Assembly: GCA_947447995.1 (NCBI GenBank)
Contig: CANFLQ010000003.1
Span: forward strand, 2,742 to 66,741
Source: Bacteroidota bacterium
Lineage (GTDB): Bacteria > Bacteroidota > Bacteroidia > 2-12-FULL-35-15
Direction of reading: 5' to 3'
Length of the DNA: 64,000 bases
Part shown: positions 45,833 to 63,829 of the stretch, in pieces
Layout: each line of letters opens with the position of its first letter
How positions within the stretch are numbered: the first letter of the stretch is position 1
Notes under the pieces: model-generated
Databases searched by the model: none
The model's input: the letters and a program-made list of their open reading frames with translations, nothing else
What the model was told of the DNA's origin: nothing
Program-made: the position numbers and the translations under genes

Positions 45833-46390
45833 TTAGTAAAATTTTTTTTCGTTTTTTAAGTGTTGGAAGGATTCGATATTTCGATATTTTATAATTTTAT
45901 GAGGATTTCCTCCAATAACGGCATAATCGGGTATATCTTTTGTTACAACAGTACCAGCTGCAACAACAACCCCTTCACCAATTGTTACTCCAGGAACAAT
46001 TGTAACATTTGAACCACACCAAACAAAATCTTTTATTATAACAGGTGCTTCAATTTCAATATCATCATATGGTATTGAATTTAAGTTTTCATAGTTGTGA
46101 TTGGTTGAAAATATTGTTAATCCTCTACCAGTATGAAAATATCTACCAATGCTCACTCCTCCAGAACAATCAATGAATGTATCAGATTTTAAATGGCTAG
46201 TGTTGTCAATTGAAAATTTCTTAATATCTCCTGCAATGGTAAATCCGCCGTTCCCTTGGTTTATAAAATTTAAGTTAATCCCTTCTTGTCTTAAACGCAT
46301 TTCTTGACAAGATTCCAATAGATATTTCAATTTATTGATTAAAATATCTATATTAAAAATCAAAAACAGCTTAATAATTATCCGTCTCAT
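45833..46390 (-). CDS. Hexapeptide-repeat (LbH) O-acetyltransferase
   Basis: The C-terminal half is WCGSNVTIVPGVTIGEGVVVAAGTVVTKDIPDYAVIGGNPHKIIK, like maltose/galactoside acetyltransferases. Confidence 0.85.
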   Translation of the reverse strand: MRRIIIKLFLIFNIDILINKLKYLLESCQEMRLRQEGINLNFINQGNGGFTIAGDIKKFSIDNTSHLKSDTFIDCSGGVSIGRYFHTGRGLTIFSTNHNYENLNSIPYDDIEIEAPVIIKDFVWCGSNVTIVPGVTIGEGVVVAAGTVVTKDIPDYAVIGGNPHKIIKYRNIESFQHLKNEKKFY

Positions 46391-46393
46391 TAT

Positions 46394-47671
46394 TTATTGT
46401 AGTTTTTCTAATTTAGAAAGTTCTTTATTAGTGAAATAATAAGTTAATGAGGCTAGAAGAATAAAAGAAATTAAATTTCCTAGTGCTGGTGCTTTAATAT
46501 CAAACCAAGGGATTAATATTATCCCTGTAATTAAACAACTTAAAGCAGATAAACTCATTATAACCGATTTTAAATTATTCAGTTTAAGATAATCGATTAC
46601 TAAACCAACAATTTGATACATCCCAAAAAAGGCTTGAGCCATTGTTAAAATACAAATAACCCATTTAGATGCTAAATACTTTTCTCCAAAAAAATAAGGT
46701 AAAAAAAACAAAACAGCTATACATATAGACAATGCTAATACCAAAATTAAAACAGTATATATTTTAAATAATTTCAATATAAATTTTTTATCCTGTTTTT
46801 CATTCAAAGCTTTATAAATAAGTGGGGCTATTACTTTAGCCATAGTGCCGTTGATGGTCATTACAAATCCACTAATTCCAGCACCGGCTGAATAAATCCC
46901 TACATCTTCGATTGTAAGATAGTGCAGAAGAATAAATCGATCCGATTGGTTTATAACCCAGCCAGCTATTGCTCCAATCCATATTGTCATTCCATATTTT
47001 AAAAAACATTTCCATTCTATTTTATTTGCAGTAATTTTAAATTTCTTGCCGATATCGCTAAAATAGGCTAATCTTAAAAACAAAAAAAAACCTTCGGAAA
47101 TAAGAAAAGAAAGAACTCTTCCTTCCCAATTAAAATTGAAAATTGAAATTAATATATAGGTTATTAATAGAGATAAAGCACTGGTACCAAAATTTAAAAT
47201 TCCAAATTGGGTTGCTTTGCTTTTTTGTATTAATTCACTGTTGTGAATGGAAGATAACAGAAGTAGAAATCCATAAATAATAGAAAAATGTACAATTGAA
47301 TTATATTCGCCCCAGAGACTTGTAAAAGCAAACGCGAGTAGTTCAAAAAGCAAAAACAGTGCAATGCAAAAAGTTAAAAAATTATTTCGAAAATAAACAT
47401 ACTTTTCATACGAATAATTTACAATGTTGATTTGAATTAGTCCTATTGCCTGAAATGATAAAAAACTAGGCATTAAAAATGAGATGCTAATGAATATACC
47501 TAAATGTCCATACCCAGATTCAGGTAATGTATGCGTAAGATACGAAATGGAAGAAATAGAAATAACAGCTGATAAAATAGTGAATATATAATAATTCAAA
47601 AAACTAAAAAGTAATTTCTTATTTATCTTAATTGAATTAACCAGCTTTTTGATTTTAAATTGGTAACTCAT
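46394..47671 (-). CDS. wzx: Wzx-type oligosaccharide flippase (MOP superfamily)
   Basis: 425 aa with about 12 TM helices. Its position in the locus fits, and its stop overlaps the next gene. Confidence 0.8.
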   Translation of the reverse strand: MSYQFKIKKLVNSIKINKKLLFSFLNYYIFTILSAVISISSISYLTHTLPESGYGHLGIFISISFLMPSFLSFQAIGLIQINIVNYSYEKYVYFRNNFLTFCIALFLLFELLAFAFTSLWGEYNSIVHFSIIYGFLLLLSSIHNSELIQKSKATQFGILNFGTSALSLLITYILISIFNFNWEGRVLSFLISEGFFLFLRLAYFSDIGKKFKITANKIEWKCFLKYGMTIWIGAIAGWVINQSDRFILLHYLTIEDVGIYSAGAGISGFVMTINGTMAKVIAPLIYKALNEKQDKKFILKLFKIYTVLILVLALSICIAVLFFLPYFFGEKYLASKWVICILTMAQAFFGMYQIVGLVIDYLKLNNLKSVIMSLSALSCLITGIILIPWFDIKAPALGNLISFILLASLTYYFTNKELSKLEKLQ

Positions 47672-48384
47672 TATACATTGTATTTTATTATTGCTTCGAT
47701 TATTTCCTGATAAACAAGTTGATTTCCTAAAGTATTCGGATGGTACCCATCTTCGTATATTTCTTCTTTGTATTTTCTACAATCTAATGGAGTTATCACT
47801 TTAACAAAAGAATGTTTTTTTGAAAAATCAGATATTAATTCATTGTATTTTTCTACATTAATTCCCACTTCTTTGTTCTTTCTTACCATCGCTTCACTTG
47901 GGTAAGGTATTGAAATCAAAATTAAAAGGCTAAGTTCAATAAAAGAGCATCTTTCAATATATTTTTTTAAATTTTCAACAAACTGATTTTGGGAAACAAC
48001 AGTATTTGTCACTTTCCTTTTTCTAATTTTCTTAATAATATTTATATATTTTTTTTTTGATGATTCTGCTAATATTTTCAAGACTAGTTTATCAAAATTA
48101 TTTAGTAATCGAGGGGAGCAATCAACAATACCTAGTTGAATTATAACTATACTTGGGTTATAAAATTCCAAACAATCGGCTCCTAATGGTAATTTATCAA
48201 TTCCTTCAGTTCCTCCACCTTCAGTAACTAATATATTTGTGGAAATAGAACGTCTAAAAATACTGTTAAAATCATTATTGGGTAACGCTTGTTTAAGTTT
48301 AAAAAACCATGTATCTTCATAGGCATTCATATGCCCAGGAAGTGAAGTAGAGTCTCCAATACATAGAATTTTATTATTTTTCAT
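47671..48384 (-). CDS. SGNH/GDSL-family hydrolase (esterase or acyl-transfer domain)
   Basis: Block I is ILCIGDSTS and block V is EDGYHPN (DxxH). 237 aa with no signal peptide. Confidence 0.75.
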   Translation of the reverse strand: MKNNKILCIGDSTSLPGHMNAYEDTWFFKLKQALPNNDFNSIFRRSISTNILVTEGGGTEGIDKLPLGADCLEFYNPSIVIIQLGIVDCSPRLLNNFDKLVLKILAESSKKKYINIIKKIRKRKVTNTVVSQNQFVENLKKYIERCSFIELSLLILISIPYPSEAMVRKNKEVGINVEKYNELISDFSKKHSFVKVITPLDCRKYKEEIYEDGYHPNTLGNQLVYQEIIEAIIKYNV

Positions 48385-48442
48385 ATTGTTTAATTATGTT
48401 GAAATCGAGAATACTTTTACCATTTGCTAGAATAGTTAATTA

Positions 48443-49396
48443 TCAACTTTTATATCCTGCAATTTTTTCGTAGAATTCAAAATTTGCTTGATGTTCTTCT
48501 ATTGTACAAATTAGATTAGAATCTATTCTTTTCAAAAATGCTTCTGTTTGTAAATAAAGCCCTGGTTTAAAATTTATATCTATGTCGTATGGTTTATCCA
48601 TTTCCTCTATTGCAATAGATCCCAATTTTTGTATTGACAACTTCTCCATAGGTTTTAAATAAATTCTATGTTTTAAAGTTAAAATTTCAATACTCCAACG
48701 TCCTGCAGATTCCCAATTAGAATGGTATGAAAAAGGAATGTCATTTATGGTTATTCCGCTTCCGCAAAATATAGAACCGGAAGTGTGCCATTTTATATTG
48801 TTTCCTTTTATTATAGTACTTATTTCTTTAGGTCTTCCTGCTAAATGAAAGACCGTATCAATAACATGTGACGAATTTCCAATTAAGAATTTATCTAGAA
48901 CATGTGGCAAAAATTTATCTTGGTCAATTGTATGTATCCATTCTGTAAATTCAAAATGAATTGACGAAATTCCACCATCTTGTTCTATTAAATTTCTCGC
49001 ATATTTTAGTGATTGATAAAACCGTCTATTGTATGCAACAAGTAATCGAACATTACCGTTACTTGCGAGTGTTTTTAAATCGTCTATTTCTTTTTGGCAT
49101 AGCCCAGCAGGTTTCTCCGTTAAAATATTTTTTGCTCCATTAATAATAAATGCTTTTGCTGCCTGATAGCCTGTTTCTAATGACGAAGCAATTATTACGT
49201 TATCTAAAGGTTTATAATTTTGGAGATATAACTCATAGCCACCTTCATAAGTCTTGACGTTAGGATAGATTTTTTTAAATTCATTTAATTTCTCAGGTCT
49301 GTTTCCAATAATTTCAAAGCTGATATTTTGTGCCTGTAATACTTTAGCATATTCTAATGCCATGTATCCACTTCCTACTATTAAGACTTTATTCAT
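48443..49396 (-). CDS. Gfo/Idh/MocA-family NAD(P) oxidoreductase
   Basis: N-terminal Rossmann VLIVGSGYMALEYA and the family motif LTEKPAG. Confidence 0.8.
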   Translation of the reverse strand: MNKVLIVGSGYMALEYAKVLQAQNISFEIIGNRPEKLNEFKKIYPNVKTYEGGYELYLQNYKPLDNVIIASSLETGYQAAKAFIINGAKNILTEKPAGLCQKEIDDLKTLASNGNVRLLVAYNRRFYQSLKYARNLIEQDGGISSIHFEFTEWIHTIDQDKFLPHVLDKFLIGNSSHVIDTVFHLAGRPKEISTIIKGNNIKWHTSGSIFCGSGITINDIPFSYHSNWESAGRWSIEILTLKHRIYLKPMEKLSIQKLGSIAIEEMDKPYDIDINFKPGLYLQTEAFLKRIDSNLICTIEEHQANFEFYEKIAGYKS

Positions 49397-49402
49397 TCTT
49401 TT

Positions 49403-50383
49403 TTAGGTTAAAGGACAAGTGTCCGTTGATATTTTTAATGAATTGTTATAGAATTCTAGTAGAGATGAAATATACGAAATATGCATTTTTGCAGAGTCAT
49501 CAAATGACGTTAATCCACAATTTCCTTTTAAAAGGATTTCTTGAGTGACGTCTCCTGTAAGATCACTTTGAAAAAAAACTTTCAATTTTTTATTTTCCCA
49601 TTTCCAATTATTTTCTAATAAGGACATTTTAAAATCTCCATTTGTTTCATCAATTATAAAAATGGACTTTTCTCCCATAATAGTTATAATATGAGGTGCT
49701 GTAGACCCGTTTCGGGCATTAATAATAATTTCACTTCCATTGCTCTGTTCTCCTTGAAGTGTACCTGTAAATTCAACAAAACCCATTCTTTTACTATCGT
49801 GTACTACTTTATCAAGATGGGAAGTGGATAACTTAAAATCATAATTATCATTTAGATACGCTAAAAAGTCTATGAAATGAATTCCATTGCTTCCTAGCCC
49901 CCAATTTCCACCAGTTAACAAAAACGTTAATTTCTCATTTTTTGAAATGTGTTTTTTTATTTCTGCATAATCAGGAAATAATCTTCTTGGGCAATTTATC
50001 CAGGCTTTTATATTGTTCTTTCTAAGGAGACTCTTAATTAATTCATAATCTGCAATCTTTTGGAACAATACTTTTTCAAATATAATTGCCTTTACCTTCT
50101 TTTTTTGTATTATTTGATAGGTTGCAAAAGCTCTTACATTTGAATTGGTTGCAATAATGCATAAATCAATATTTTCATTCAAGTTTTCTATTGAGTTTAT
50201 GAATTTAATATTTTTTATATTTTCATTATCGCCAATTTCCTTATACCTTTCTTTTGCAATTAATAATGACTCCTCGTTTGGATCTACTACCTCTATATTT
50301 ACTGGAAGATTTATTTTTTTTAAACCTTGTAAGTGCCTACTTCCTAATTGACCAGCACCTATTAATGCTATATTATAAACCAT
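49403..50383 (-). CDS. Gfo/Idh/MocA-family NAD(P) oxidoreductase
   Basis: IALIGAGQLGSRH Rossmann and an EKV variant of the EKP motif (IIFEKVLF). Confidence 0.75.
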   Translation of the reverse strand: MVYNIALIGAGQLGSRHLQGLKKINLPVNIEVVDPNEESLLIAKERYKEIGDNENIKNIKFINSIENLNENIDLCIIATNSNVRAFATYQIIQKKKVKAIIFEKVLFQKIADYELIKSLLRKNNIKAWINCPRRLFPDYAEIKKHISKNEKLTFLLTGGNWGLGSNGIHFIDFLAYLNDNYDFKLSTSHLDKVVHDSKRMGFVEFTGTLQGEQSNGSEIIINARNGSTAPHIITIMGEKSIFIIDETNGDFKMSLLENNWKWENKKLKVFFQSDLTGDVTQEILLKGNCGLTSFDDSAKMHISYISSLLEFYNNSLKISTDTCPLT

Positions 50384-50427
50384 TATCTATTACGTTGTTT
50401 AATTACTTAAATTTATTAAATTATACC

Positions 50428-51267
50428 TTAACTTTTTCCAAACTTCTTTAATACAAAAAATTTAAAGACCTTAAACACATCTTTGAAATTTGAACCGGCA
50501 AAGGGTTTGTAAAATTTATAAAAATCAGCGGTATTTACAGATTTGGTATTGGATTTAACTCCATTTCTAAATAATTCAATATTATCCAAAACTTTAGTAG
50601 TCAATCTGGAACTGGATAGAAGGATTTCTGCAGAAACATCATTTGGATTTGCAATTACATATTCAGCAGGTAAAAAATCGAACATTAAAGATACTCTTGT
50701 GTCATTACAAACACACTTACTATGATACCCGATGGTGTTGATTAAAAATAATGTTCCATTTGGCTTATTGCAAATAACAATTTCATCCTTGTGTTGCTCT
50801 AAATAACCTTTTGGAGGAAAAGGTTCTTTGATTTTCAACACCTGTGAGCCTGTTACATATTTAAAAGCTCCACTATTCAAATCTCCTCCTTCAATAACTA
50901 TTTGAGCTCTAATTAATCCTCCATTCCTTAAATCAGAATGCCAAACTAATTCCTTATTATTTTTATTTTCATGGTATAAGGCAACATGAGCAAACTTGTA
51001 ATTTTTATAACCTAATTTCTCAATTTCTATAGCAATATCAATGGCAACCTCTAATAAATTAACACTTTCAATTATAACAGTAGGATTCGGAATTTCTAAA
51101 ACAAATTTACTTAACCTTATTGCATAACCGGGACCCAATAATTTTGTAAATGAAAACAATTTATTACATTCTGTTCTTAATGCCTCTATTTGTTCTTTGC
51201 TAAGGAATTTAAAATTTGTTTGGAGTCCATCTTGGATAAAATTGAGCTCTTTTTGATTTACTTTCAT
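50428..51267 (-). CDS. Fe(II)/2-oxoglutarate-dependent oxygenase-like protein (PhyH-like)
   Basis: HxD in VWHSDLRNG, a distal His in TIGYHSK, and RxS in DTRVSLMFDF about 10 residues later. This is the facial-triad plus 2OG-anchoring pattern. Confidence 0.6.
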   Translation of the reverse strand: MKVNQKELNFIQDGLQTNFKFLSKEQIEALRTECNKLFSFTKLLGPGYAIRLSKFVLEIPNPTVIIESVNLLEVAIDIAIEIEKLGYKNYKFAHVALYHENKNNKELVWHSDLRNGGLIRAQIVIEGGDLNSGAFKYVTGSQVLKIKEPFPPKGYLEQHKDEIVICNKPNGTLFLINTIGYHSKCVCNDTRVSLMFDFLPAEYVIANPNDVSAEILLSSSRLTTKVLDNIELFRNGVKSNTKSVNTADFYKFYKPFAGSNFKDVFKVFKFFVLKKFGKS

Positions 51268-51381
51268 TTATTTTTGAGTTTTTAATATAAATAAGTTACA
51301 ACCTTTAATAAATCGGTATAGAACTAATGTAGTTCTAATATTTTATACCACACTAAACCCATTGCGCTATAACTTGTTGGT

Positions 51382-52122
51382 TCATATAGCAGTCCAGCCA
51401 CCATCAACTAACAAATTATGTCCTGTAACGTATGAAGCTTCGTCAGAAAGTAAATAATGGACAGCTGAAACAATATCTTTTGAAGTTCCCATTCTTCTAA
51501 GGGGAACTTTTTTATTATAATTGATTACAAATGACTCTGGTTGTTTATTATCAAATATCCCCCCAGGTGAAATAGTATTAACCCTCACTTGGTATGGACC
51601 ATAATAAGCAGCTAAATATCGGGTTAAATTATTAAGCCCTCCTTTAATTGCAGAATACGCAGCTGGCATGGTCATTTCAGTTCCGTCATAAACAGTAAAA
51701 TCTGGAGCAATTATTCCGTAGATGGAAGACATATTAATTAGTGAACCCAATTGTTGTTTTTTCATTTCCTCTAACACTATTTTGCAGCAAAGAAAATATC
51801 CATTCAAATGCATATCCACATTCTGACGCCAAGAATCAATTGTAATATTTTCAAATTTATTTCCCCAATCTTTAGTTCTTGGATAAGCGTTATTTAACCA
51901 TCCGTCTATCCGTCCATATTTTTTTACTATAATCCCCACTACTGAATTTACTGAATTTTCATTTGTTATATCCATTACATAATCATGCGATGTTTGATTT
52001 TCAAAAAACAAATCAACACCAATTGCTTGAGCACCTTCATTTCTTAAAGAAGTGACAATTTCTCGACCAAGTAGCCCATTACTACCTGTAATAACAATAA
52101 CTTTATCTTTAACTGAAAACAT
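51382..52122 (-). CDS. ptmA: Short-chain dehydrogenase/reductase, PtmA-like (flagellin modification protein A type)
   Basis: VITGSNGLLGRE (TGxxxGxG), NNAYPR and a catalytic YSAIK (YxxxK). Confidence 0.7.
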   Translation of the reverse strand: MFSVKDKVIVITGSNGLLGREIVTSLRNEGAQAIGVDLFFENQTSHDYVMDITNENSVNSVVGIIVKKYGRIDGWLNNAYPRTKDWGNKFENITIDSWRQNVDMHLNGYFLCCKIVLEEMKKQQLGSLINMSSIYGIIAPDFTVYDGTEMTMPAAYSAIKGGLNNLTRYLAAYYGPYQVRVNTISPGGIFDNKQPESFVINYNKKVPLRRMGTSKDIVSAVHYLLSDEASYVTGHNLLVDGGWTAI

Positions 52123-52127
52123 ATTTT

Positions 52128-54200
52128 TTAATTATATTTACGAAATACAGGCTTAATAATTGGTGATTTTAAATATTTTTCAATACCATTTTCCAATGCG
52201 TATTTGTATATACTTAATGAGGCTTTAACTGCTGACAAGGTTAAATCTAACTCTGGTTCCTGATGAGCATAAGATACGGCAATATAAGGCATCATAACTC
52301 CCTGATTGATCATTTCCTGAGCAAATAAAGTACGCATAGCTAAAGATACATTCCCTTCTTTGTCTTTAGTAACATAGTTGGGAGAACAAGAATACCCTTC
52401 AACATAAAAATAATCATTAATTCCTAAATCTTTAGCAATGTTGTTCATTCCGTTTACAAGTTTTTCTCCATAAGTCCAGAAATGTTCTACAACTTTATCT
52501 CTTTGTAAAATTTCCATTGTTTTTATAAAAGCACCCAATCCACACATTTCTGCACCATGAGTTGTAGATGTTAAAAATATTCTTTCCTTACCTTCTTCTA
52601 AAATCCCTCCTAACTGCATGATTTCTCTTTTACCAGCAAGTGCCGCCACGGCAAAACCATTAGCCATAGCTTTACCAAAAGTACATAAATCAGGCTCTAC
52701 ACCAAAATAGGTTTGAGCACCTTGAAAATGCCAACGGAAGCCTGTAATCATTTCATCCAAAATAAACACCGTATTATTTTTTTTACATAAGTTCTTTACT
52801 TGATGTAAAAAATCATCCTTAGGACCAACAGAAGTTGCGGCCTCTAACATAACGCCTGCAATTTGATTAGGGTATTTGTCAAATAATTGTTCTAAAGAAT
52901 TTAAGTTATTGTAATTAAATTTTAAAGTTAAAGTCCTTAATTCTTCAGGAATTCCCCTTTGTATAACAGTAGAACCTATAAACCAATCATCAAATGAGAA
53001 GAATGGGTGTTCTGCTGCTACTACAATATATTTTCGCCCCGTATAAGCTCTTGCTAGTTTCATTGCAGCAGATGTCACATTTGACCCATGTTTTGCAAAT
53101 TTAACCATATCTACCGATGGTATAATTTCCGCTAATAACTCTGCCGCTTTTAACTCTGTTAAGGATGCTCGAGTAAGATTGTTTCCTTTTAAAATCTCTT
53201 GGTAACAAGCATCGGCGATTTCTTTATTAGCATAACCAATATTAACAGAACGTAAGCCCATCCCATAATCTAAATATTTTTCACCATCTGGGCTAAACAC
53301 GTATGCGCCTTCCCCTCTTTCAAGAATAGCAGGTGCATTTGAAGGAAATTGATCATCGCCCCTGGAATAAGTGTGGGCTCCACCTGGAATTACATGATGC
53401 AACCTCTCCTTAAATGTAATCATATTCTTATTTTTAAAATTCATATTATTTTCTTGACTGATTAAAGTATTAAAATTTGACCAATAGATAGTATTTAAGT
53501 GGGAATTGATTTTATAAATCTTATTTTCAATTACAAAATTAATAACATCATTATCTGAAATTTTACCTGGATTCAAATTATTTTGTTCAATAAGTTGCTT
53601 TAAAAACTTTATATCATCTGGATAATCGCAGGTAAACCTTAAATGTTCTTCTTTTTGGTAATCTCCCAACTGGAGAGTTTTAACTTTATTAAGATCAAAT
53701 ATTCTACCCCAACCTGTTTCCAAAAAAGAAGTTTCAGCAATATTATTCAATACATTTTTCAAAAATAACGATGAATATCCAAAAACATTCATTCCTAAGG
53801 GTAAACCTATAGTTTTTACTAGATCTTCCCCTTCATTAAGTGCATTATATATACTTTTTATGGCTACAGTAGATATAAACACATTATCTCCATCAATAGA
53901 AATAATATTATTAAATCCTAAATCATCCGTACAATTTAATTCTCTATAAGGTATATTATGAACATTACCATAATATACAGAAACTGGATAATCAAAATGA
54001 ATCTCTTCAAATTTTCTATTCTCTATTTCATCAGAAGTACATATAATTATTTTGCATTTTTGTTTTATTAATTCCTCTGATAATGCAAAACCTACTCTAT
54101 TTACAATATGCTCAATAATTTTTTTACCCTTAATTTCAATAAGATGCTTACCAGGCAATCTATATGATCCTAATCTTGCGATTATTAAAACACCTACCAT
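52128..54200 (-). CDS. Fusion protein: N-terminal CTP_transf_3 cytidylyltransferase-like domain plus C-terminal class-III (glutamate-1-semialdehyde aminomutase-like) PLP aminotransferase
   Basis: Residues 1 to about 250 are paralogous to ORF 54249-55001 (IIARLGSYRLPGKHL, ISIDGDN, LETGWGRIF). Residues from about 265 to 690 carry VIPGGAHTYSRG, FILDEMITGFR and the PLP-Lys context DLCTFGKAMANGF. It is a single uninterrupted 690-aa frame. Confidence 0.8.
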   Translation of the reverse strand: MVGVLIIARLGSYRLPGKHLIEIKGKKIIEHIVNRVGFALSEELIKQKCKIIICTSDEIENRKFEEIHFDYPVSVYYGNVHNIPYRELNCTDDLGFNNIISIDGDNVFISTVAIKSIYNALNEGEDLVKTIGLPLGMNVFGYSSLFLKNVLNNIAETSFLETGWGRIFDLNKVKTLQLGDYQKEEHLRFTCDYPDDIKFLKQLIEQNNLNPGKISDNDVINFVIENKIYKINSHLNTIYWSNFNTLISQENNMNFKNKNMITFKERLHHVIPGGAHTYSRGDDQFPSNAPAILERGEGAYVFSPDGEKYLDYGMGLRSVNIGYANKEIADACYQEILKGNNLTRASLTELKAAELLAEIIPSVDMVKFAKHGSNVTSAAMKLARAYTGRKYIVVAAEHPFFSFDDWFIGSTVIQRGIPEELRTLTLKFNYNNLNSLEQLFDKYPNQIAGVMLEAATSVGPKDDFLHQVKNLCKKNNTVFILDEMITGFRWHFQGAQTYFGVEPDLCTFGKAMANGFAVAALAGKREIMQLGGILEEGKERIFLTSTTHGAEMCGLGAFIKTMEILQRDKVVEHFWTYGEKLVNGMNNIAKDLGINDYFYVEGYSCSPNYVTKDKEGNVSLAMRTLFAQEMINQGVMMPYIAVSYAHQEPELDLTLSAVKASLSIYKYALENGIEKYLKSPIIKPVFRKYN

Positions 54201-54248: not shown

Positions 54249-55001
54249 TTACAATTCATTATTCTTCTGTTTATTAAAATTAGCCCAATATTGATCGTGA
54301 AGTGATTTATTTATTTTAAAAAATTGTTTCTCTAAAATTAAATTAATTAAATCGTCATCATTTAATGCTACAATACTGTTTCCACAATAAGAAATTACGG
54401 CTTTAAAAAACTCTGCGTCTAAATCGTAATCTAAAGTTAGCCGAAGATCTTTGTTTTCTGAATTCGTACCCATATTAATTTCGTAAATGGGCTCGTTTTC
54501 AAATATTCTGCCCCAGCCTGTTTCTAACTTTCCCGAAATTTGAGAAACTTTTTTTTTCAAAAAATCAGACGTGTAACCCACTACATTCATACCAAAGGCC
54601 AAACCTGTGGTTTTTACAAAAGGATTTATATTTTCAATAAGCTGATTATAAGTATTTCTAGCTGCCTTTGTCGAACATAAAATATCATCCCCATCAATAG
54701 AAATAATGTTTTTCAACATGTATTTTTCTGCACATTCAGTCTGCCGCAATGGAATATTTTGATCATCCCCATAAAAAATAGTTATGGGTAAATTATTTAA
54801 TACGGTTTCAAATTTTTTATTTTCAGGCATATTAGAAGTTGCCAAAAACAGTTTAACTTTTCCATTTTCTATTTCTTTTTTAAACTCAAAAGTATATCTA
54901 GTTACCAACCATTCTACAAAGCTTTTACCATTTACCTCAATTAAATGTTTATTAGACAATCGTGTTGACCCTAACCTAGCTATGAAAAGTATTCCCGTCA
55001 T
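54249..55001 (-). CDS. legF: CTP_transf_3-family cytidylyltransferase (SpsF/LegF-like), candidate CMP-legionaminic acid synthetase
   Basis: ILFIARLGSTRLSNKHL (ARxGSxRLxxK motif), ISIDGDD, 250 aa. It sits directly after the PtmF-like gene, as in Leg clusters. Confidence 0.6.
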   Translation of the reverse strand: MTGILFIARLGSTRLSNKHLIEVNGKSFVEWLVTRYTFEFKKEIENGKVKLFLATSNMPENKKFETVLNNLPITIFYGDDQNIPLRQTECAEKYMLKNIISIDGDDILCSTKAARNTYNQLIENINPFVKTTGLAFGMNVVGYTSDFLKKKVSQISGKLETGWGRIFENEPIYEINMGTNSENKDLRLTLDYDLDAEFFKAVISYCGNSIVALNDDDLINLILEKQFFKINKSLHDQYWANFNKQKNNEL

Positions 55002-55005
55002 TTAA

Positions 55006-56043
55006 TTAGTTTTCAAAATTTTCAAATTTACTTTCTTGAGATGACTTTTCTATAGCGTATAGTAATTTTAATATTTTATGATCATATTCCATAGAATTAA
55101 AAAAATCTTTTTTACCTTCTATTGCTTCGAAAAAATTAATAAGTTCATCCATATACATTTGCTCAGTAATATTTTTATTATATCCTAATGCTGCTAAATT
55201 GATTTTATATTCCCATAATTCCCACTTTTCTGTTTTAGAATCGTATATTTTAATACAATTGTCATCCCAGTTCCACACTAATTGTTTTTCTGAACCATTA
55301 ATTAATAATTTTCGAGTAGCGTGCCTAGAAACTACATCAATACTAAGATTTAAAATAAAACCATTGTAATTTAATAACGCATTATATGTATCGTCAATGT
55401 TTTCCGCTCCATCAATATCAATTGTTTTTTTTACAATGCCTGCAACCTGTTTAGGGAAACCTAATATTTTTGTAATCCATGTTAATTCGAAAGGAACAAT
55501 CTCTCGAGCTCCTCCCGTTTCTTTTTTTGAAACATAATATTCTTGTACTTTTTCATAAGAATGCCAATCTGGTAAATACTGACCAGATTGATAAATAAAA
55601 TTAGTAATAGTTCCCAGCTCTCTATTCCTAATAATTGTAAATATTTTTTGAATAGCGGGATGAAAATACAATGTACTTGAAGGTGCTGCAATTATTTTGC
55701 TACTTTTTAGTTTATCTATTATTTGATCCATTCCATAATCTACAACACTAGCCTCAACAAAAAAGTGTATATTATTGTCAATAGCTTTATTAATATAGAA
55801 ATGATGAATATCTGGAGGAACTGAAATTATTATCGCTTCTATGTTTAATGTTTTTATCGCCTCATCTACATTGTCTATAATAACAACATCTTTCAAATCA
55901 TTATCGCCACCTCGTCTGTCAACACGTATATCAAACCCGTAAATATTTTTATAACCAAGGGCTTTTATGTTTCTGATTCGCCTTTTCCCCATTGAACCTA
56001 AACCCACAACTAATATCTTATATTGCAACTCTTGTTTTATCAT
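55006..56043 (-). CDS. ptmF: Gfo/Idh/MocA-like oxidoreductase, PtmF-like
   Basis: ILVVGLGSMGKRRIRN Rossmann and a position immediately after the PtmE-like gene. Confidence 0.6.
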   Translation of the reverse strand: MIKQELQYKILVVGLGSMGKRRIRNIKALGYKNIYGFDIRVDRRGGDNDLKDVVIIDNVDEAIKTLNIEAIIISVPPDIHHFYINKAIDNNIHFFVEASVVDYGMDQIIDKLKSSKIIAAPSSTLYFHPAIQKIFTIIRNRELGTITNFIYQSGQYLPDWHSYEKVQEYYVSKKETGGAREIVPFELTWITKILGFPKQVAGIVKKTIDIDGAENIDDTYNALLNYNGFILNLSIDVVSRHATRKLLINGSEKQLVWNWDDNCIKIYDSKTEKWELWEYKINLAALGYNKNITEQMYMDELINFFEAIEGKKDFFNSMEYDHKILKLLYAIEKSSQESKFENFEN

Positions 56044-56044
56044 T

Positions 56045-57100
56045 TTATATTTTTATATGTTTTATATCTTCCTGAGCTTTTAAATAATCATGATGTTTTC
56101 CAATATCTAACCAATATTCAATAACAGGGTAATGAATTAGTGATAAATTTTTTTGAGATATAATATAATCCATTAAATCAGTTGCATTAAAAAACTGTCC
56201 CTTTTTAATACACTCTTTTAATGCAAAATTGAATATATATATGCCTCCATTTGAATAATAAGTATAAGTGGGTTTTTCTGAAAATGAAGATACTTTATCA
56301 TCAATTGTTTCTAATACAGCATAAGGAATAGTTACTTGATATGGAATACTAGCTAAAGCCATGGTAGCATTTTTTTTCTTAAAAAAAGTAAAAAATTCTT
56401 CAAAATCAATATTGGTTAAAATATCAGAATTAATTACTAAAATATCCTTATATTTTGAAGATTCAATGTATGATAATGATCCAAGAGTTCCTAAAGGTTC
56501 TTCTTCTGTTATATAGTTAATTTGAACACCTTTTGAAGAGCCATCCCCAAAATAATCTATAATTTGTTCTTTTAAATACTTAACGCTTATATAAATATCT
56601 TTTATTCCGAAAGAGATTAATCGGTCAACGGTATGTTCAATAATGGGTTTTCCCCCAACGAATAACATTGATTTTGGAACACTATCTGTAAGTGGTTTTA
56701 GGCGCTCACCTCGCCCTCCGGCCATAATCAAAGCAGTTAAAGGTAATAATGTAATTAATTGCTCGAAATTCAAAATTTCTACTAAACAATTATTACCATC
56801 TACCACAGGCACTAAAAAAACTCCCTCATTTTTAAACTCTTTGATTTTTTCTAAATCTTCCTCTCCCTTTTTTAGGTATTTGAATTTTGTATTGATATAT
56901 TTTGAAATATTATCCGAGATAAGAAATCCGTTTAAAAGACCTCTACGAATATCTCCATCAGATAATGTTCCAAGCATTTTATTTTTTTCATCTGTAACAA
57001 ACAAAATTCTTATAGCATTACTTGGCAGTTCTTCCAAAGACTTTAAGGCATTTCTAACCTCTTCCTTTATTAAAATTATATGTTGTTTATTATTCTTCAT
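56045..57100 (-). CDS. ptmE: CBS-pair plus sugar-phosphate nucleotidyltransferase, PtmE-like
   Basis: N-terminal CBS region (MLGTLSDGDIRRGLL) then ALIMAGGRGERLKPLTDSVPKSML (GxGxRLxPLT signature). Confidence 0.8.
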   Translation of the reverse strand: MKNNKQHIILIKEEVRNALKSLEELPSNAIRILFVTDEKNKMLGTLSDGDIRRGLLNGFLISDNISKYINTKFKYLKKGEEDLEKIKEFKNEGVFLVPVVDGNNCLVEILNFEQLITLLPLTALIMAGGRGERLKPLTDSVPKSMLFVGGKPIIEHTVDRLISFGIKDIYISVKYLKEQIIDYFGDGSSKGVQINYITEEEPLGTLGSLSYIESSKYKDILVINSDILTNIDFEEFFTFFKKKNATMALASIPYQVTIPYAVLETIDDKVSSFSEKPTYTYYSNGGIYIFNFALKECIKKGQFFNATDLMDYIISQKNLSLIHYPVIEYWLDIGKHHDYLKAQEDIKHIKI

Positions 57101-58211
57101 TTATGTTCAATGCTTTTAATGTAGCAACAATTTTATTACTTGCTCCACCGTTGTAGTATATATTTTCTTCTACAAATGGAGGCTGATTTACAATTTTTTG
57201 AATGGACAAATTAATTTCGTTTTCAAGAATTGGTATATGAATTACATTTTTCCCGCATAATCGCCCTTTTTGTCTATCACCTAAATTTATTACATATTTA
57301 CCAAATGATGCTGCTTCTATAATACCACTAGAGGTATTTCCTAATAAGAAACTGCAATTTTTTATTGCAGAAAAATAACTTTGTGTGCCTAAATTTTCAA
57401 TTAAAAACACCTTTTTATTATTTGTTAATTGTTTAATAAAAAGATTCCTGATTACATTGCCGGCAGTATCGGCGTTTGGCATTGTAATTAAAAACTGAAG
57501 TGCCGGATTACTATAAATTGAATTTATTATTTCTTGAGCATAAAAAGCATTTTTATCCGAATTAACCGTTTCGGGATGAAAGGTAATTAAGCCTGTTGTT
57601 GGTTGGTTTAAATTAATCCCCCACTTCTGTTCAAATTCTTTGTTATCTAATAAGGGTATTTGTAAAATATTATCTAAACTCAGCGCACCAACATTATAAA
57701 CATTATTGGGTTCATCTAGCAATGTGTAAATCCTATTTTTATATTCTTCAGTTGAAGTAAAATGAATTGATGAAGCAAGAGAAATTGAATGCCTGAAAAC
57801 ATTATCAATTGCACCTAATGTTTTTTCTCCTCCATGTAAATGAGCAAATTTTACATGAAAAGGTAAGGCAGAAAGTACAGCAGCAAACATTTCATATCTA
57901 TCCCCTAAACAAAATACAAGATCAAATTGTTTATGATGTTCTTTCCAAAAGGAGGAAAATTTTATCATTGTTAAGCCCATAGCTGATGAAATGGCATCTT
58001 GACTATCGGACAAAACCAGGCTTTCAATTTTGTAGTTTGCTTCAAACCCCTCTTTTATAATTTGATCTATCGTAAATCCATGGAAAGGGGATAAATGTGT
58101 TCCAAAAGCAATTATTTTTAAATCAAAAAAAGGGTCTTCCTTTAATTTTTTTAAAAGAGGAAGATATATTCCAAAATCGGCTCTTGAACTAGTTAATATG
58201 GCAATTCTCAT
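57090..58211 (-). CDS. legG: Hydrolysing nucleotide-sugar 2-epimerase (NeuC/LegG type)
   Basis: MRIAILTSSRADFGIYLPLLKKL, LGDRYEMFAA and HLHGGE, typical of hydrolysing NeuC-family epimerases. 373 aa. Confidence 0.85.
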   Translation of the reverse strand: MRIAILTSSRADFGIYLPLLKKLKEDPFFDLKIIAFGTHLSPFHGFTIDQIIKEGFEANYKIESLVLSDSQDAISSAMGLTMIKFSSFWKEHHKQFDLVFCLGDRYEMFAAVLSALPFHVKFAHLHGGEKTLGAIDNVFRHSISLASSIHFTSTEEYKNRIYTLLDEPNNVYNVGALSLDNILQIPLLDNKEFEQKWGINLNQPTTGLITFHPETVNSDKNAFYAQEIINSIYSNPALQFLITMPNADTAGNVIRNLFIKQLTNNKKVFLIENLGTQSYFSAIKNCSFLLGNTSSGIIEAASFGKYVINLGDRQKGRLCGKNVIHIPILENEINLSIQKIVNQPPFVEENIYYNGGASNKIVATLKALNINEE

Positions 58212-58212
58212 T

Positions 58213-59235
58213 TTATTTTAAATCTTCCCATTTTAACTTATCACCAACAACTAAATTTGTTGTAACATTTTTACCTACAATATTTTCTAGTTCCATTGGT
58301 GAAATACCATCACCAGGCCTTAAACAAATTAAATCATCTTCAGTAATTTTATCCCCTTCGTTTATTGTTTTATTAATATGAATGCTTTTTCTTGCAACAA
58401 GTATATTTTTCTTTTCGGTTTCAGATGGCTTTTTCTCGATTGAACCTAATGCTTTCTCTATATTTCTAATCGATTCTACCATTAATTTTAACTCTTCAGG
58501 TTCAAGCGACGCTTTGTGATCGGGACCTGGCAATGTTTTATCCAATGTAAAATGTTTCTCAATTATTGTTGCTCCCATTGCCACAGCAGCAATAGGAACT
58601 TCAATACCTAATGTATGATCGGAATATCCAATTGGTACATTTAATTTTTTTTGAATAGTTAACATGGCATTCAAATTAACATCCTCCATTGCTGTTGGAT
58701 AATCAGTTGTGCAATGTAAAACTGTTATTTTTTCTTTAGGTGTTCCTGATTTAATTAATACATCAATTGCATCTTGAATTTCACTCATCACACACATACC
58801 GGTAGATACAATTACTTTTTTGTTTAATGCGCCAATTTTTTTGAGATATGGTAAATTAGTTATTTCTCCGGAAGGTATTTTAAATAAATCAATGCCTAAA
58901 GAATTTAATAAATCAATGCTTTCAAGATCAAATGCAGTAGAAAGAAATTGTATTTTTTTTAGCTTACAATATTCTATTAATTCATGATGTTGTTCAATGC
59001 TTAGTTCCAATTTTTTTAACATTTCAAATTGCGTATTTGAAACTACATCATTCATGTTTTTTTGCTGATAGTCTGCTTTCTTAGCTGTTAAACTAACAAG
59101 ATTTTCTGTTTTAAATGTTTGAAATTTAACGTAATCTGCATTTGCTTGAGCAGCAGCATCAATTAATTTTTTTGCTGTTTCAATATCCCCATTGTGGTTA
59201 ACTCCGGCTTCGGCAATTATAATTACTTTTTTCAT
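58213..59235 (-). CDS. legI: Nonulosonic acid synthase (NeuB/LegI type) with a C-terminal SAF domain
   Basis: MKKVIIIAEAGVNHNGD, KFQTF and IGYSDHT, plus a SAF-like C-terminus. The ATG at 59235 overlaps the upstream stop (TAATG). The track start at 59268 is upstream and less likely. Confidence 0.9.
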   Translation of the reverse strand: MKKVIIIAEAGVNHNGDIETAKKLIDAAAQANADYVKFQTFKTENLVSLTAKKADYQQKNMNDVVSNTQFEMLKKLELSIEQHHELIEYCKLKKIQFLSTAFDLESIDLLNSLGIDLFKIPSGEITNLPYLKKIGALNKKVIVSTGMCVMSEIQDAIDVLIKSGTPKEKITVLHCTTDYPTAMEDVNLNAMLTIQKKLNVPIGYSDHTLGIEVPIAAVAMGATIIEKHFTLDKTLPGPDHKASLEPEELKLMVESIRNIEKALGSIEKKPSETEKKNILVARKSIHINKTINEGDKITEDDLICLRPGDGISPMELENIVGKNVTTNLVVGDKLKWEDLK

Positions 59236-59846
59236 TATTTTATTTTTTTTGCCGGATTCCCAAACCATGTTTCATTATCAGGAATGTCACATACAACTAC
59301 TGAACCTGCACCAACAATTACATTATTCCCAATTTTTTGTCCTTGTTTAAAAACTGAATTAGCGCCAATAAATGTTTCATATCCAACTGTTACATTTCCA
59401 GCCAATACTGCACCAGGTGCAATATGACTAAAATCTCCTATTGTACATTCATGTTCTATTATAGCTCCGGAATTAATTATACATCCCTTACCTATTTTAG
59501 CTAATGAGTTTACTATTGCACCTGGACCTATAAAGGAAGATTGACCTATTGTACTTGCCGATGAAATTATTGCGGATTTATGCTTAATAGTTGTTTGTTT
59601 TACATTCAAATTTTCCAAATGGGATATTATTTTTTTTCGAATACTATTTGATCCTATGCAAGGAAAAACAGCATTATTGGCTACTTTTTCTTTAAAATCT
59701 ATTTCGTCCTCTGATCCAAAATAGGTTAAACTGTAAGGATTATTGACTACTTCTTTTTGATCAAAATATCCAATTACTTTATTGTTTTCCGATTGAATGG
59801 AATCTAAAACTACAAAAGCATGTCCTGAATACCCTAAAATAAACAT
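59235..59846 (-). CDS. legH: NeuD/PglD-type hexapeptide N-acetyltransferase (LegH-like)
   Basis: MFILGYSGHAFVVLD Rossmann-like N-terminal domain then the LbH repeats IGKGCIINSGAIIEHECTIGDFSHIAPGAVLAGNVTVG. The track start at 59864 is GTG. The ATG at 59846 is preferred. Confidence 0.85.
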   Translation of the reverse strand: MFILGYSGHAFVVLDSIQSENNKVIGYFDQKEVVNNPYSLTYFGSEDEIDFKEKVANNAVFPCIGSNSIRKKIISHLENLNVKQTTIKHKSAIISSASTIGQSSFIGPGAIVNSLAKIGKGCIINSGAIIEHECTIGDFSHIAPGAVLAGNVTVGYETFIGANSVFKQGQKIGNNVIVGAGSVVVCDIPDNETWFGNPAKKIK

Positions 59847-59850
59847 ATAA

Positions 59851-61002
59851 TTACAATCTAACACTACTTGGAATATTTACTAATCTATCTTCAATCCATT
59901 CTGAATTAGCTAAATTTCCAGTTAATGAGTCCTTAAACATCTCTAGTTTATTCATTAATATCCAAACTGGACGAGTCATAACACCGTTATTGTTGGTATA
60001 TGTTAAAAATCGGTCTCTTTCGTTTTTATCTTTTAATAAAATACAATTTAACCAAAAATTAGCCTTAGAGTCCTCTATTTCATCGAAAAATTTAATGTTT
60101 GATTTACTAAAAAACAAATTGTACTGCTGAGCTAATTCTCTTTTTTTACTAACATAATTATCTAGCTGTTCCAACTGAGCGCAAGCCATTGCCGCGTTTA
60201 AGTTAGGCATACGATAATTATATCCAATATAGTCGTGCCTAAATTCCCATGCGTGAGGTACTTTAGCTTGAGTTGTAAGGTGTTTTGCTAATTTAGCTAT
60301 TGCTTCGTCATTTGTAACCAAAGCCCCACCACCACCGCATGTTATTGTTTTATTACCGTTAAAACTAAAAACTCCCATTAACCCAAAACTACCAGTGTGT
60401 TTGCCTTTATAATAACTTCCAATTGATTCAGCCGAATCTTCTACCAAAATAATATTCCATTTTTCACAAATTGTAACTAGCTCATCTATTCGACAAGGAA
60501 AGCCAAATGTATGCATAGGTACACAGGCTTTTATTCTTTTGCCTGATAATTTATTGTAAGTATAACCATCATTACGTATTTCTCCATTTTCTTCCAAAAA
60601 TGAAATTAATTTATTTGGGGACATACCCATTGTATCTATATCCACATCAATAAATACTGGTTTTGCACCAATATAGGAAATTGCATTTGCGGTTGCAATA
60701 AATGTAAGTGCCTGTGTCAGCACTTCATCATCTGTTTTCACTTCAGCAAGAATCAAAGATATATGCAATGCCGATGTTCCATTAACCAAAGCCACGGCAT
60801 ATTTTGTTCCAGTTACTTCTGCCATCATTTTTTCAAACCGATTTACATATTCCCCAACTGAAGAAACAAAAGTAGAATCAATCGCATCTAAAACATAGTT
60901 ACGTTCATTACCAATGAAAACAGGTTCATGTAAGTGAACAAATTCTTTGTCAGGGAACAAACTTTTTATAAAGGAAACAGTATTTTTATTTTCGGTCATC
61001 AT
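59851..61002 (-). CDS. legC: LegC-family DegT/DnrJ/EryC1 aminotransferase
   Basis: HLHEPVFIGNERNYVLDAIDSTFVSSVGEYVNRFE is the LegC-family N-terminus as I recall it. The PLP-Lys context is FSFNGNKTITCGGGG. Confidence 0.85.
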   Translation of the reverse strand: MMTENKNTVSFIKSLFPDKEFVHLHEPVFIGNERNYVLDAIDSTFVSSVGEYVNRFEKMMAEVTGTKYAVALVNGTSALHISLILAEVKTDDEVLTQALTFIATANAISYIGAKPVFIDVDIDTMGMSPNKLISFLEENGEIRNDGYTYNKLSGKRIKACVPMHTFGFPCRIDELVTICEKWNIILVEDSAESIGSYYKGKHTGSFGLMGVFSFNGNKTITCGGGGALVTNDEAIAKLAKHLTTQAKVPHAWEFRHDYIGYNYRMPNLNAAMACAQLEQLDNYVSKKRELAQQYNLFFSKSNIKFFDEIEDSKANFWLNCILLKDKNERDRFLTYTNNNGVMTRPVWILMNKLEMFKDSLTGNLANSEWIEDRLVNIPSSVRL

Positions 61003-63289: not shown

Positions 63290-63829
63290 TTAGGCAGAAG
63301 CCTTCAATCTAACAGAATTATTTAAGGCTTCTACTTGTGTTTGTCCTATTTCCAAAACAATTCCTTTACCTATAGAATACAAAGAAAGTAACAACTTACC
63401 TTTGCCATTATGGCGTATTATTTGAGCGTAATTATCTTTAAAAGGGCCAGATGTTATCAACACTTCTTGTCCTGGCTCAAATGTTGTATCAATTACTTCT
63501 AATTCAAAATTAGTAGAAATAGCTATTTTAATAGCTTCTAAATGTTTTGAATTAACTGTAGCGTATTTTCCTCCAAAAGAAACAAAACGAACAATCCCAG
63601 GTGTATTTAAAATCTTATAACGTTCATTTTCAGAAAATTGAATAAATAGGTATCCTGGAAATAATGGGACTTCAACTTCTTTTATTCGATCACTCCAAAC
63701 GTTCTTTTTTTTTGTAAGAGGCAGGTATGCTGAGACACCACATTTAATCAAGTAATTAGTGCATTTTTTTTCAAAACGAGAGCGTGTTTGAATAACATAC
63801 CAAGGGCTTTCTACTACTATGCCTTTCAT
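63290..63829 (-). CDS. UpxY-family NusG-like transcription antiterminator
   Basis: 179 aa. WYVIQTRSRFEKK NGN start and a KOW motif GQEVLITSGPFKDNYAQI. It is the first gene of the polysaccharide locus, as in Bacteroides capsule loci. Confidence 0.85.
   Translation of the reverse strand: MKGIVVESPWYVIQTRSRFEKKCTNYLIKCGVSAYLPLTKKKNVWSDRIKEVEVPLFPGYLFIQFSENERYKILNTPGIVRFVSFGGKYATVNSKHLEAIKIAISTNFELEVIDTTFEPGQEVLITSGPFKDNYAQIIRHNGKGKLLLSLYSIGKGIVLEIGQTQVEALNNSVRLKASA

Follow-up and report, generated by a model that had tools for sequence, protein, structure and literature searches.

Separable, probably tailoring modules adjoin a legionaminic acid-type gene set in a Bacteroidota polysaccharide locus

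Nonulosonic acids (NulOs), sugars of the cell surface, influence how bacteria are recognised by the immune system, how susceptible they are to phages and how their capsules are typed, and genes have been assigned for only a few of their isomers, through the Ela, Aci and Epa systems. Here we analyse five genes at 47671-52122 that follow a legionaminic acid (Leg)-type gene set and precede wzx in a Bacteroidota bacterium (assembly GCA_947447995.1, contig CANFLQ010000003.1, positions 2,742 to 66,741 of the forward strand). We call this whole stretch of 64,000 nucleotides (nt) the window, and give all its coordinates from its first letter. A preliminary description of the window had treated the five genes as one block acting on the Leg scaffold or its precursors. 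Our preferred explanation is that the region supplies the accessory half of a Leg-type NulO module, devoted to tailoring and set in an UpxY-headed, Wzx/Wzy-dependent polysaccharide locus of a low-GC (guanine plus cytosine) Bacteroidota; we find it to be a mosaic of four separable sub-modules rather than one five-gene pathway. We consider it probable that these modules, composite in make-up, tailor a NulO and give rise to a modified Leg derivative.

The redox conversion of cytidine monophosphate (CMP)-activated Leg (CMP-Leg) to isomers by extra oxidoreductases is already established. In Acinetobacter, lgaABCDEFG directs the synthesis of Leg5Ac7Ac, lgaABCDEF with elaABC that of the 8-epimer (8eLeg), and lgaABCDEF with aciABCD that of acinetaminic acid (Aci). 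ElaA, a Gfo/Idh/MocA protein, is the proposed CMP-Leg C8 oxidase, ElaB is a cytidylyltransferase, and ElaC, a short-chain dehydrogenase/reductase (SDR), is the proposed reducer of the 8-keto sugar. The structures of all three have been solved, and strains with elaA, elaB or elaC deleted were no longer lethal and made markedly less capsule. On the pseudaminic acid (Pse) side, EpaA, a fusion of a CTP_transf_3 domain with an aldo-keto reductase, and the SDR EpaB convert Pse to 8ePse, as seen by nuclear magnetic resonance. The Escherichia coli O161 antigen contains Leg5Ac7Ala and the O108 antigen 8eLeg5Ac7Ac. On the E. coli chromosomes that we read (L017 and L018), an O161-family locus carries only PtmE and a cytidylyltransferase, whereas an elg-type locus adds a Gfo/Idh/MocA gene between them and an SDR gene after them, a contrast that would fit the PtmF/PtmA-like genes acting in epimerisation.

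Against this background, the accessory part of the window consists of the following features:

45833..46390, minus strand: Hexa185, a hexapeptide-repeat O-acetyltransferase (WbbJ/Maa-like; NCBIfam)
47671..48384, minus strand: SGNH/GDSL hydrolase, a predicted O-acetyl esterase of 237 amino acids (aa) (Pfam Lipase_GDSL, 27.6 bits against 23.6)
48443..49396, minus strand: Gfo3, second member of a Gfo/Idh/MocA pair, 317 aa (Pfam GFO_IDH_MocA, PF01408, 35.8 bits against 24)
49403..50383, minus strand: Gfo2, first member of the pair, 326 aa (Pfam GFO_IDH_MocA, PF01408, 27.2 bits against 24)
50428..51267, minus strand: Oxy279, a PhyH-like Fe(II)/2-oxoglutarate (2OG) dioxygenase by motifs and Foldseek, 279 aa
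51382..52122, minus strand: SDR246, a PtmA/ElaC-family SDR, 246 aa (adh_short_C2, 148 bits)
52128..54200, minus strand: a fusion of a CTP_transf_3 domain (residues 1-~245) with a class-III aminotransferase (~254-690), 690 aa (Pfam)
54249..55001, minus strand: CTP250, a divergent CTP_transf_3 cytidylyltransferase and presumed CMP-NulO synthetase (Pfam CTP_transf_3, 24.3 bits against 22.6)
55006..56043, minus strand: Gfo1, a PtmF/ElaA-like Gfo/Idh/MocA protein of a variant that we call type B (BLASTP and motif comparison)

Open reading frame (ORF) calls, Pfam and NCBIfam searches, motifs and Foldseek recovered all five minus-strand genes of the preliminary description at exactly the limits given there and in the families named there, with the ORF of wzx following at 46394-47671. 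Every block protein has full-length homologues in other taxa, so the five genes are real and not chance ORFs.

A widespread element of the region is the pair formed by Gfo2 and Gfo3, whose genes lie 6 nt apart. Each carries the Rossmann GxGxxG motif, the EKP-type lysine and the C-terminal His/Asp motif of the Gfo/Idh/MocA family. As first noted from the sequence, the two are adjacent but dissimilar members of one family with a third in the locus: both pass the Pfam model, and BLASTP finds no similarity among Gfo2, Gfo3 and Gfo1 at E<1e-3. We annotated 80 metagenomic loci encoding Gfo3 relatives with profiles made from the window proteins and their homologues, and read additional gene neighbourhoods of Gfo3 and of the oxygenase in individual genome contexts. 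Gfo2 lay immediately upstream of Gfo3 in 57 of the 61 metagenomic loci with enough upstream DNA. The two were also adjacent in every genome context read, including Pedobacter, a Chryseobacterium metagenome-assembled genome (MAG), Gammaproteobacteria, a marine contig, Sediminibacterium, a Sphingomonad plasmid, Aliarcobacter butzleri, Legionella sp. and Sphaerochaeta. One metagenome scan gave more than 500 copies of the pair, and homologues of different phyla typically share 40-50% identity.

Where at least 6 kb of upstream DNA was available, a NulO marker (NeuB, NeuC, PtmE or a cytidylyltransferase) accompanied the pair in 26/27 loci, and NeuB itself in 22/27. The genes directly ahead of the pair vary (a cytidylyltransferase alone; an SDR; a PtmF-like Gfo and an SDR; or a class-III aminotransferase and an SDR), and a cytidylyltransferase-Gfo2 or SDR-Gfo2 order was seen in 27/42 loci. 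Gfo2-Gfo3 is thus a conserved adjacent pair across many phyla that is almost always specific to Leg/Neu-type NulO loci. The preliminary description had tied these genes to the NulO pathway and had asked whether the block also occurs commonly in genomes without a NulO synthase; the co-localisation of the pair with NulO genes upholds the tie, and that reading survives. As a separate observation, one metagenomic contig (L033, 149-4255) carries two tandem Gfo2-Gfo3 pairs, with an SGNH gene ~1 kb downstream.

Gfo3 is the most conserved protein of the block: its 238 homologues, from several phyla, are 37-76% identical to the window protein (median 44%). The residues E94-K95-P96, N174, S175, H177 and D180, which make up the motifs EKP and N-S-x-H-x-x-D, are invariant in a 33-sequence alignment and 99-100% conserved in 239 sequences. 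In ten Gfo2 sequences the motifs GAGQLG, EK(V/P) and HxxD are retained. Judged by the integrity of these motifs, both enzymes look catalytically competent. Sequence searches of the Protein Data Bank (PDB) gave no match for Gfo2 and only generic family members for Gfo3. As NAD(P)-type enzymes, Gfo2 and Gfo3 would carry out an oxidation followed by a stereochemically different reduction, through a keto intermediate at one hydroxyl-bearing carbon. Their substrate would be CMP-Leg or, less likely, the nucleotide-linked 2,4-diamino-2,4,6-trideoxyhexose precursor, and the outcome would be either an altered stereocentre or a keto group passed to an aminotransferase, in parallel to the proposed action of ElaA and ElaC at C8. 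The earlier suggestion that paired oxidoreductases could serve sugar epimerisation has precedent in ElaABC, AciABCD and EpaAB, all of which alter the stereochemistry of Leg or Pse.

The resemblance to these precedents is partial. Like the window, the ElaABC systems (A. baumannii KL49, the elg-type E. coli O-antigen locus and the V. vulnificus nab locus) place a Gfo, a cytidylyltransferase and an SDR after a PtmE/LgaF-like gene. SDR246 and the E. coli SDR that occupies the ElaC position share 38% identity, and Gfo1 matches the ElaA-position Gfo over its full length. Unlike ElaA, Gfo1 lacks the catalytic Lys and His; compared with the E. coli homologue, Gfo2 gives only a partial BLASTP match (4e-6) and Gfo3 none at E up to 0.01; and the Ela module has no aminotransferase, oxygenase or SGNH gene. 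A search with a gammaproteobacterial Gfo3 returned no Acinetobacter protein among the best 120 matches. The AciABCD/AciE systems (A. baumannii KL12, KL13 and KL73; acinetaminic and 8-epiacinetaminic acid) likewise place extra redox genes after lgaA-F and credit them with the C7/C8 stereochemistry, and AciB is a 246-aa SDR (741-bp gene), equal to SDR246 in length. Their module combines a CTP_transf_3, an adh_short, a GFO_IDH_MocA and a second adh_short protein, that is, one Gfo and two SDRs (bioRxiv 10.64898/2026.07.20.739706, Supplementary Table S3). The window instead reads cytidylyltransferase, cytidylyltransferase-aminotransferase fusion, SDR, oxygenase, Gfo and Gfo. We considered equating the fusion, SDR246, Gfo2 and Gfo3 with AciA, AciB, AciC and AciD, and rejected this on domain composition, AciD being an SDR and not a Gfo.

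A second sub-module comprises Gfo1, the class-III aminotransferase fusion and SDR246. Gfo1 lies directly after the PtmE-like gene, in the PtmF/ElaA position, matches the E. coli PtmF-position Gfo over its full length (BLASTP, E 4e-17) and retains the PtmF/ElaA family signature GQYLPDW; a PDB sequence search gave no match. In ElaA the catalytic residues are K91, in the EKP motif, and H181 (PMC13656337). In Gfo1, VEAS replaces EKP and VPFELTW replaces LSHELDY, whereas 13 canonical members all have EKP and (S/I)H(E/D); as aligned, Gfo1 lacks the Lys and His named for ElaA. The same type B variant occurs at L030, L037, L048 and L072, all of which have a class-III aminotransferase, and in three of these four loci it lies directly upstream of the aminotransferase. 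The aminotransferase is present in 5/5 type B loci and in 0/13 canonical PtmF-like loci (Fisher p ~1e-4, calculated by hand and indicative only, as the loci are not phylogenetically independent). Because the variant without the ElaA catalytic residues tracks with the aminotransferase, we place Gfo1, on these sequence comparisons, in the accessory aminotransferase sub-module.

The 690-aa fusion passes the NCBIfam model PRK06209 (653.6 bits against 486; the name of this model is provisional) and fails the HemL equivalog TIGR00713 (205.8 bits against 527.3). Its N-terminal domain and CTP250 are 42% identical tandem paralogues; these two are the only cytidylyltransferases in the window, which holds no canonical NeuA/LegF-type gene. 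In our sample the class-III aminotransferase subfamily is seen in NulO loci, and of the 15 distinct aminotransferase ORFs that we found, only those of the window's lineage are fused to a cytidylyltransferase. An SDR gene of the SDR246 family comes next after the aminotransferase gene in all cases with a readable downstream gene; in the window 5 nt separate the two genes. These patterns suggest that the fusion is an accessory tailoring enzyme and belongs to the accessory module rather than to the Leg core. The preliminary description had assumed a complete and separate Leg set upstream of the five genes, and this boundary does not hold, since the fusion and the variant Gfo1 group with the accessory part.

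SDR246 carries the classical SDR motifs TGxxxGxG (TGSNGLLG) and YxxxK (YSAIK). It scores 248.6 bits against PRK09186 (NF006619; cut-off 255) and 163 bits against the PtmA equivalog NF050062 (cut-off 350). Because both scores fall below the cut-offs, we class it as a relative, not an equivalog, of the PtmA/PRK09186 families. It is 72% identical to a Pedobacter homologue and 40% to a Sphingomonad SDR, and its best PDB sequence match is 6uh2, an unnamed SDR.

Together these three proteins would follow an oxidise-then-transaminate scheme, from hydroxyl to ketone to amine, and would leave either an extra amino group or an inverted amino-bearing centre. The logic is that of WbpB/WlbA and WbpE/WlbC, in which a Gfo/Idh/MocA dehydrogenase makes a keto sugar and an aminotransferase converts it to an amino sugar. 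WlbA is among the structural matches of Gfo3. The WbpB/WlbA and WbpE/WlbC systems differ from the window in having a DegT-type aminotransferase and a UDP-hexuronic acid substrate (the first enzyme being a UDP-GlcNAcA 3-dehydrogenase), and show no orthology to it at the sequence level. The fused cytidylyltransferase domain may bind or re-activate a CMP-sugar, as in EpaA. The prophage-borne EpaA/EpaB system of A. baumannii (Pse5Ac7Ac to 8ePse5Ac7Ac) has, like the window, a CTP_transf_3 domain fused to a tailoring enzyme and then an SDR; the fused partner there is an aldo-keto reductase rather than a class-III aminotransferase, and the system acts on Pse whereas the window is Leg-type. The flavobacterium Tenacibaculum maritimum reportedly carries a 5,7,8-triamino nonulosonic acid; a literature search for a Tenacibaculum NulO gene cluster found none.

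The third sub-module pairs the SGNH hydrolase with Hexa185. The hydrolase keeps block I GDS (IGDS) and block V DGxH (DGYH) in four homologues, which come from Bacteroidota and a Spirochaete, and shows no detectable sequence match to any solved structure. Its gene overlaps wzx by 1 nt. An SGNH gene directly follows Gfo3 in 11/59 metagenomic loci, about a fifth, as well as in L006, L009, L010 and L021; a Spirochaete is among the carriers. The esterase and the O-acetyltransferase would form a cycle of O-acetylation and de-O-acetylation that sets the O-acetylation level. Sialic acid capsules offer a parallel in the NeuD/NeuO O-acetyltransferases and the SGNH esterase domain of NeuA. The window likewise has both activities predicted in one NulO locus, with the difference that its predicted esterase is free-standing and not a NeuA domain.

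The fourth sub-module is Oxy279, inserted between the SDR and Gfo2. The protein has no Pfam or NCBIfam match and stays below the Pfam PhyH (PF05721) gathering score, but distant relatives pass it (P0299 at 29.8, P0307 at 32.6 and P0339 at 40.4 bits, against 22). H110, D112, H182, R191 and S193 (HxD...H...RxS) are invariant in 18 sequences of the family. An AlphaFold2 model (predicted local distance difference test score, pLDDT, 81) matches MysH, SnoN, HygX, KanJ and EctD in Foldseek at E ~1e-10, with a probability of 1.0 for MysH, SnoN, HygX and EctD. By transitive homology and modelled fold we therefore assign Oxy279 to the PhyH-type 2OG dioxygenases. The SnoN epimerase, KanJ and HygX share with it the fold and the HxD...H and RxS motifs at an identity of 12-15%; their substrates are antibiotic glycosides, not surface-polysaccharide precursors.

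Oxy279 is a rare, mobile accessory gene whose position varies between genomes. A collection of 5.8e9 proteins yielded 39 relatives, one of 1.84e9 representatives 124 matching clusters, and one of 185,579 species genomes only three loci, so that the statistics on its neighbourhood draw on some six contexts. None of the 80 metagenomic Gfo3 loci contains it. In Pedobacter and Nubsella its homologue lies in the glycosyltransferase region, between a homologue of a 292-aa protein (or a hexapeptide transferase) and a glycosyltransferase family 2 (GT2) gene, and the fetched Nubsella stretch around it holds no SDR and no Gfo pair. The gaps on either side of it in the window, 114 and 44 nt, are the widest of the block, which fits an insertion. 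The oxygenase is therefore separable from its neighbours, and the view of the five genes as one block has to be given up. Every oxygenase context that we read does carry NulO genes: NeuB in L010, a NeuC-like 2-epimerase in L006, PtmE and a cytidylyltransferase in Nubsella, and the class-III aminotransferase, SDR, Gfo2 and Gfo3 in Pedobacter. Hexa185 homologues (61-69% identity) are present in every oxygenase-bearing locus and adjoin the oxygenase in L006, L007 and L010. Oxy279 probably hydroxylates the sugar, its N-acyl group or another residue of the repeat unit; because its position varies, a role specific to NulOs may be only one of several possibilities.

From gene families, conservation, co-localisation and motifs we infer the substrates, the positions attacked and the final product, for which a modified Leg derivative is likely. 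The Leg-type core would make a 5,7-diacylamido NulO, and one of the two cytidylyltransferases would activate the product. A more specific version, in which Gfo2-Gfo3 is a widespread, undescribed route to a Leg isomer (for example the 4-epimer or another stereoisomer) or to a keto intermediate, and in which Gfo1, the aminotransferase and the SDR build on it here to give an extra-amino NulO that is hydroxylated by Oxy279 and O-acetylated, is, taken as a whole, unlikely.

Several observations weigh against the tailoring reading. Gene order is equally compatible with action on the CMP-sugar and on the nucleotide-hexose precursor. The Foldseek matches of the Gfo3 model (AlphaFold2, pLDDT 92.5) reflect only the generic Gfo/Idh/MocA fold and do not discriminate the substrate class. 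Gfo1 is without the expected catalytic residues, which leaves its role ambiguous. We also looked for an SDR sub-clade that tracks the presence of the aminotransferase and rejected the idea, as the SDR clusters do not follow it. The literature that we searched holds no biochemical or glycan-structure data on Gfo2, Gfo3, the aminotransferase subfamily or the oxygenase family. The Campylobacter jejuni literature, as cited in PMC4481668, puts PtmA and PtmF in the supply of GDP-linked N-acetylglucosamine (GDP-GlcNAc) and not in epimerisation. Lastly, at one locus, L085 (3762-17339), 9 kb separate Gfo3 from Gfo2, and the 10-kb flanks contain no NulO gene; this is the single informative locus without nearby NulO genes. 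Gfo3 is preceded there by genes for an unrelated PhyH-family dioxygenase, a formyltransferase, a DegT aminotransferase and a sugar C-methyltransferase, which read as genes for a C-methylated, N-formylated amino sugar, and Wzm/Wzt ABC-transporter genes adjoin. Because Gfo2 sits at the very edge of the fetched DNA, the case is ambiguous.

The stage at which the enzymes act is the first point on which other explanations diverge. Gfo2, Gfo3, the SDR and the aminotransferase could remodel the nucleotide-linked 2,4-diacetamido-2,4,6-trideoxyhexose, so that NeuB condenses another hexose and another NulO isomer results. The stereochemistry of Pse and Leg is fixed at the hexose stage, the characterised Gfo/Idh/MocA sugar enzymes among the Foldseek matches (WlbA and GnnA) use UDP-sugars, and the neighbours of Gfo3 at L085 are typical of nucleotide-deoxyhexose pathways. 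The pair is nevertheless placed at the 3' end of the NulO module, after the cytidylyltransferase, in the 27/42 loci described above, a position that matches those of ElaA/ElaC and AciB-D, whose proposed substrate is CMP-Leg; the ambiguity of L085 also lessens what it can contribute, and we regard action at the hexose stage as unlikely. It is more improbable still that the SDR, Gfo1 and the class-III aminotransferase do no tailoring and supply PtmE with a precursor (glucosamine-6-phosphate or glucosamine-1-phosphate for GDP-GlcNAc). The genes do adjoin PtmE, and the conversion of a keto sugar-phosphate to an amino sugar would, by inference, need an aminotransferase. C. jejuni has the same families in the same order of PtmE, Gfo, cytidylyltransferase and SDR, its pathway has PtmA and PtmF assigned to the first (GDP-GlcNAc) segment, and a Plesiomonas ptmA mutant loses its flagella (PMC4481668). 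SDR246 falls far short of PtmA itself in score, however, and the published supply role is unlike the Ela role. Gene content moreover tracks product stereochemistry, in that the Acinetobacter Leg modules and E. coli O161 lack these genes and the 8eLeg producers have them; the ElaA and ElaC structures are read as those of a CMP-Leg C8 oxidase and reductase; and Gfo2, Gfo3, the SGNH hydrolase and the oxygenase would be left unexplained. The same evidence bears on the initial statement that none of the five genes is required for Leg5Ac7Ac, which is debatable for the SDR: PtmA is cited in PMC4481668 among the enzymes of the C. jejuni CMP-Leg pathway, whereas E. coli O161 and Acinetobacter lgaA-G, each assigned to a Leg-type sugar, have no such gene.

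For the oxygenase on its own, it is a real possibility, if somewhat short of probable, that its target is a different residue, an acyl substituent or the repeat unit once assembled, and that its place within the redox block is an accident of rearrangement. Its location among glycosyltransferase genes in Pedobacter and Nubsella, its constant company of a Hexa185 homologue, its absence from the Gfo3 loci and the gaps around it all agree with this. Since every context read carries NulO-pathway genes, a NulO-related substrate is also possible, and sugar-acting PhyH-type enzymes (SnoN, KanJ and HygX) are among the best structural matches. Very improbable, in our view, is an independent second nucleotide-sugar pathway encoded by the five genes and unrelated to NulO. 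The polysaccharide must hold other sugars, and an SDR epimerase gene (62200-63192) and several glycosyltransferase genes are present; the block itself, as noted at the outset and borne out by Pfam and NCBIfam, has no sugar-1-phosphate nucleotidyltransferase or dehydratase of its own to start such a pathway, and the pair keeps company with NulO genes at all but one informative locus.

On the reading that we prefer, tailoring of a Leg-type NulO by composite modules, no new principle is involved, as redox tailoring of CMP-Leg is known; what is new against the described modules is the presence of two adjacent Gfo genes, a class-III aminotransferase and a 2OG oxygenase. The claim that this combination is without precedent stands to that extent, since no described module has any of the three, and a literature search for NulO, MocA, aminotransferase and SDR combined found no paper; the Gfo pair itself is widespread, and the combination is not unique to this genome. 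The most useful content of the region accordingly lies in the widespread Gfo2-Gfo3 pair and the Gfo1/aminotransferase/SDR sub-module, more than in the five-gene block as first drawn. Once the reaction of Gfo2-Gfo3 is known, one more class of NulO structures could be predicted from gene content in many bacteria, both environmental and host-associated; for NulOs with amino or hydroxy substituents, the aminotransferase sub-module and the rare oxygenase offer concrete leads.

The accessory genes are embedded in a polysaccharide locus in which the minus strand carries all genes from ~36 kb to 64 kb of the window, with transcription running from high to low coordinates. An UpxY antiterminator gene opens the locus, WecA-like, Wza-like and Wzz-like genes close it, and independent assemblies of the same organism, including MAG GCA_947454875.1, show an identical gene order. 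Its remaining features are:

46394..47671, minus strand: Wzx flippase (Pfam Polysacc_synt)
56045..57100, minus strand: PtmE/LgaF-like protein with CBS and sugar-1-phosphate nucleotidyltransferase domains (Pfam NTP_transferase, 136 bits, and CBS)
57090..58211, minus strand: NeuC/LegG-type 2-epimerase, presumably of the hydrolysing type (TIGR03568, 368.6 bits against 235.9)
58213..59268, minus strand: NeuB/LegI nonulosonic acid synthase (TIGR03569, 488 bits against 399.65)
59235..59864, minus strand: NeuD/PglD-family N-acetyltransferase in the LegH role (TIGR03570, 203 bits against 160.8)
59851..61002, minus strand: LegC-family aminotransferase (TIGR04181, 537.8 bits against a cut-off of 420)
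61002..62189, minus strand: 4,6-dehydratase (LgaA/PglF-like, Polysacc_synt_2), the first Leg-type step (Pfam record on an identical contig)
62200-63192, minus strand: SDR epimerase
63290..63829, minus strand: UpxY-family antiterminator at the head of the locus (NCBIfam antiterm_UpxY, 122 bits against a cut-off of 100)

The LegC-family, NeuD-type, NeuC-type, NeuB and cytidylyltransferase genes expected of a Leg-type NulO locus are all present. By the curated cut-offs the LegC, NeuD, NeuB and NeuC set classifies as Leg-type. The 4,6-dehydratase is 65% identical to its homologue at L013, and homologues of the PtmE/LgaF-like protein occupy the equivalent position in E. coli, the Sphingomonad plasmid and A. 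butzleri.

Three further ORFs were observed in the locus. After the O-acetyltransferase gene, at 44784-45821 on the minus strand, lies a gene for a 345-aa protein without a Pfam or NCBIfam match; its place is taken by an A-2_8-polyST-like gene in the Pedobacter, Nubsella and L010 loci, and the protein is a candidate for a new NulO transferase. A 101-aa ORF (40799-41104, minus strand), lying between the WecA-like gene and the last of the glycosyltransferase genes, matches DUF4372 at 82.5 bits, which we take to be the N-terminal domain of IS4-type transposases; the ORF is probably an insertion sequence (IS) remnant. A 158-aa ORF at 56643-57119 on the plus strand, antisense within the PtmE-like gene, is most likely a chance ORF in AT-rich DNA.

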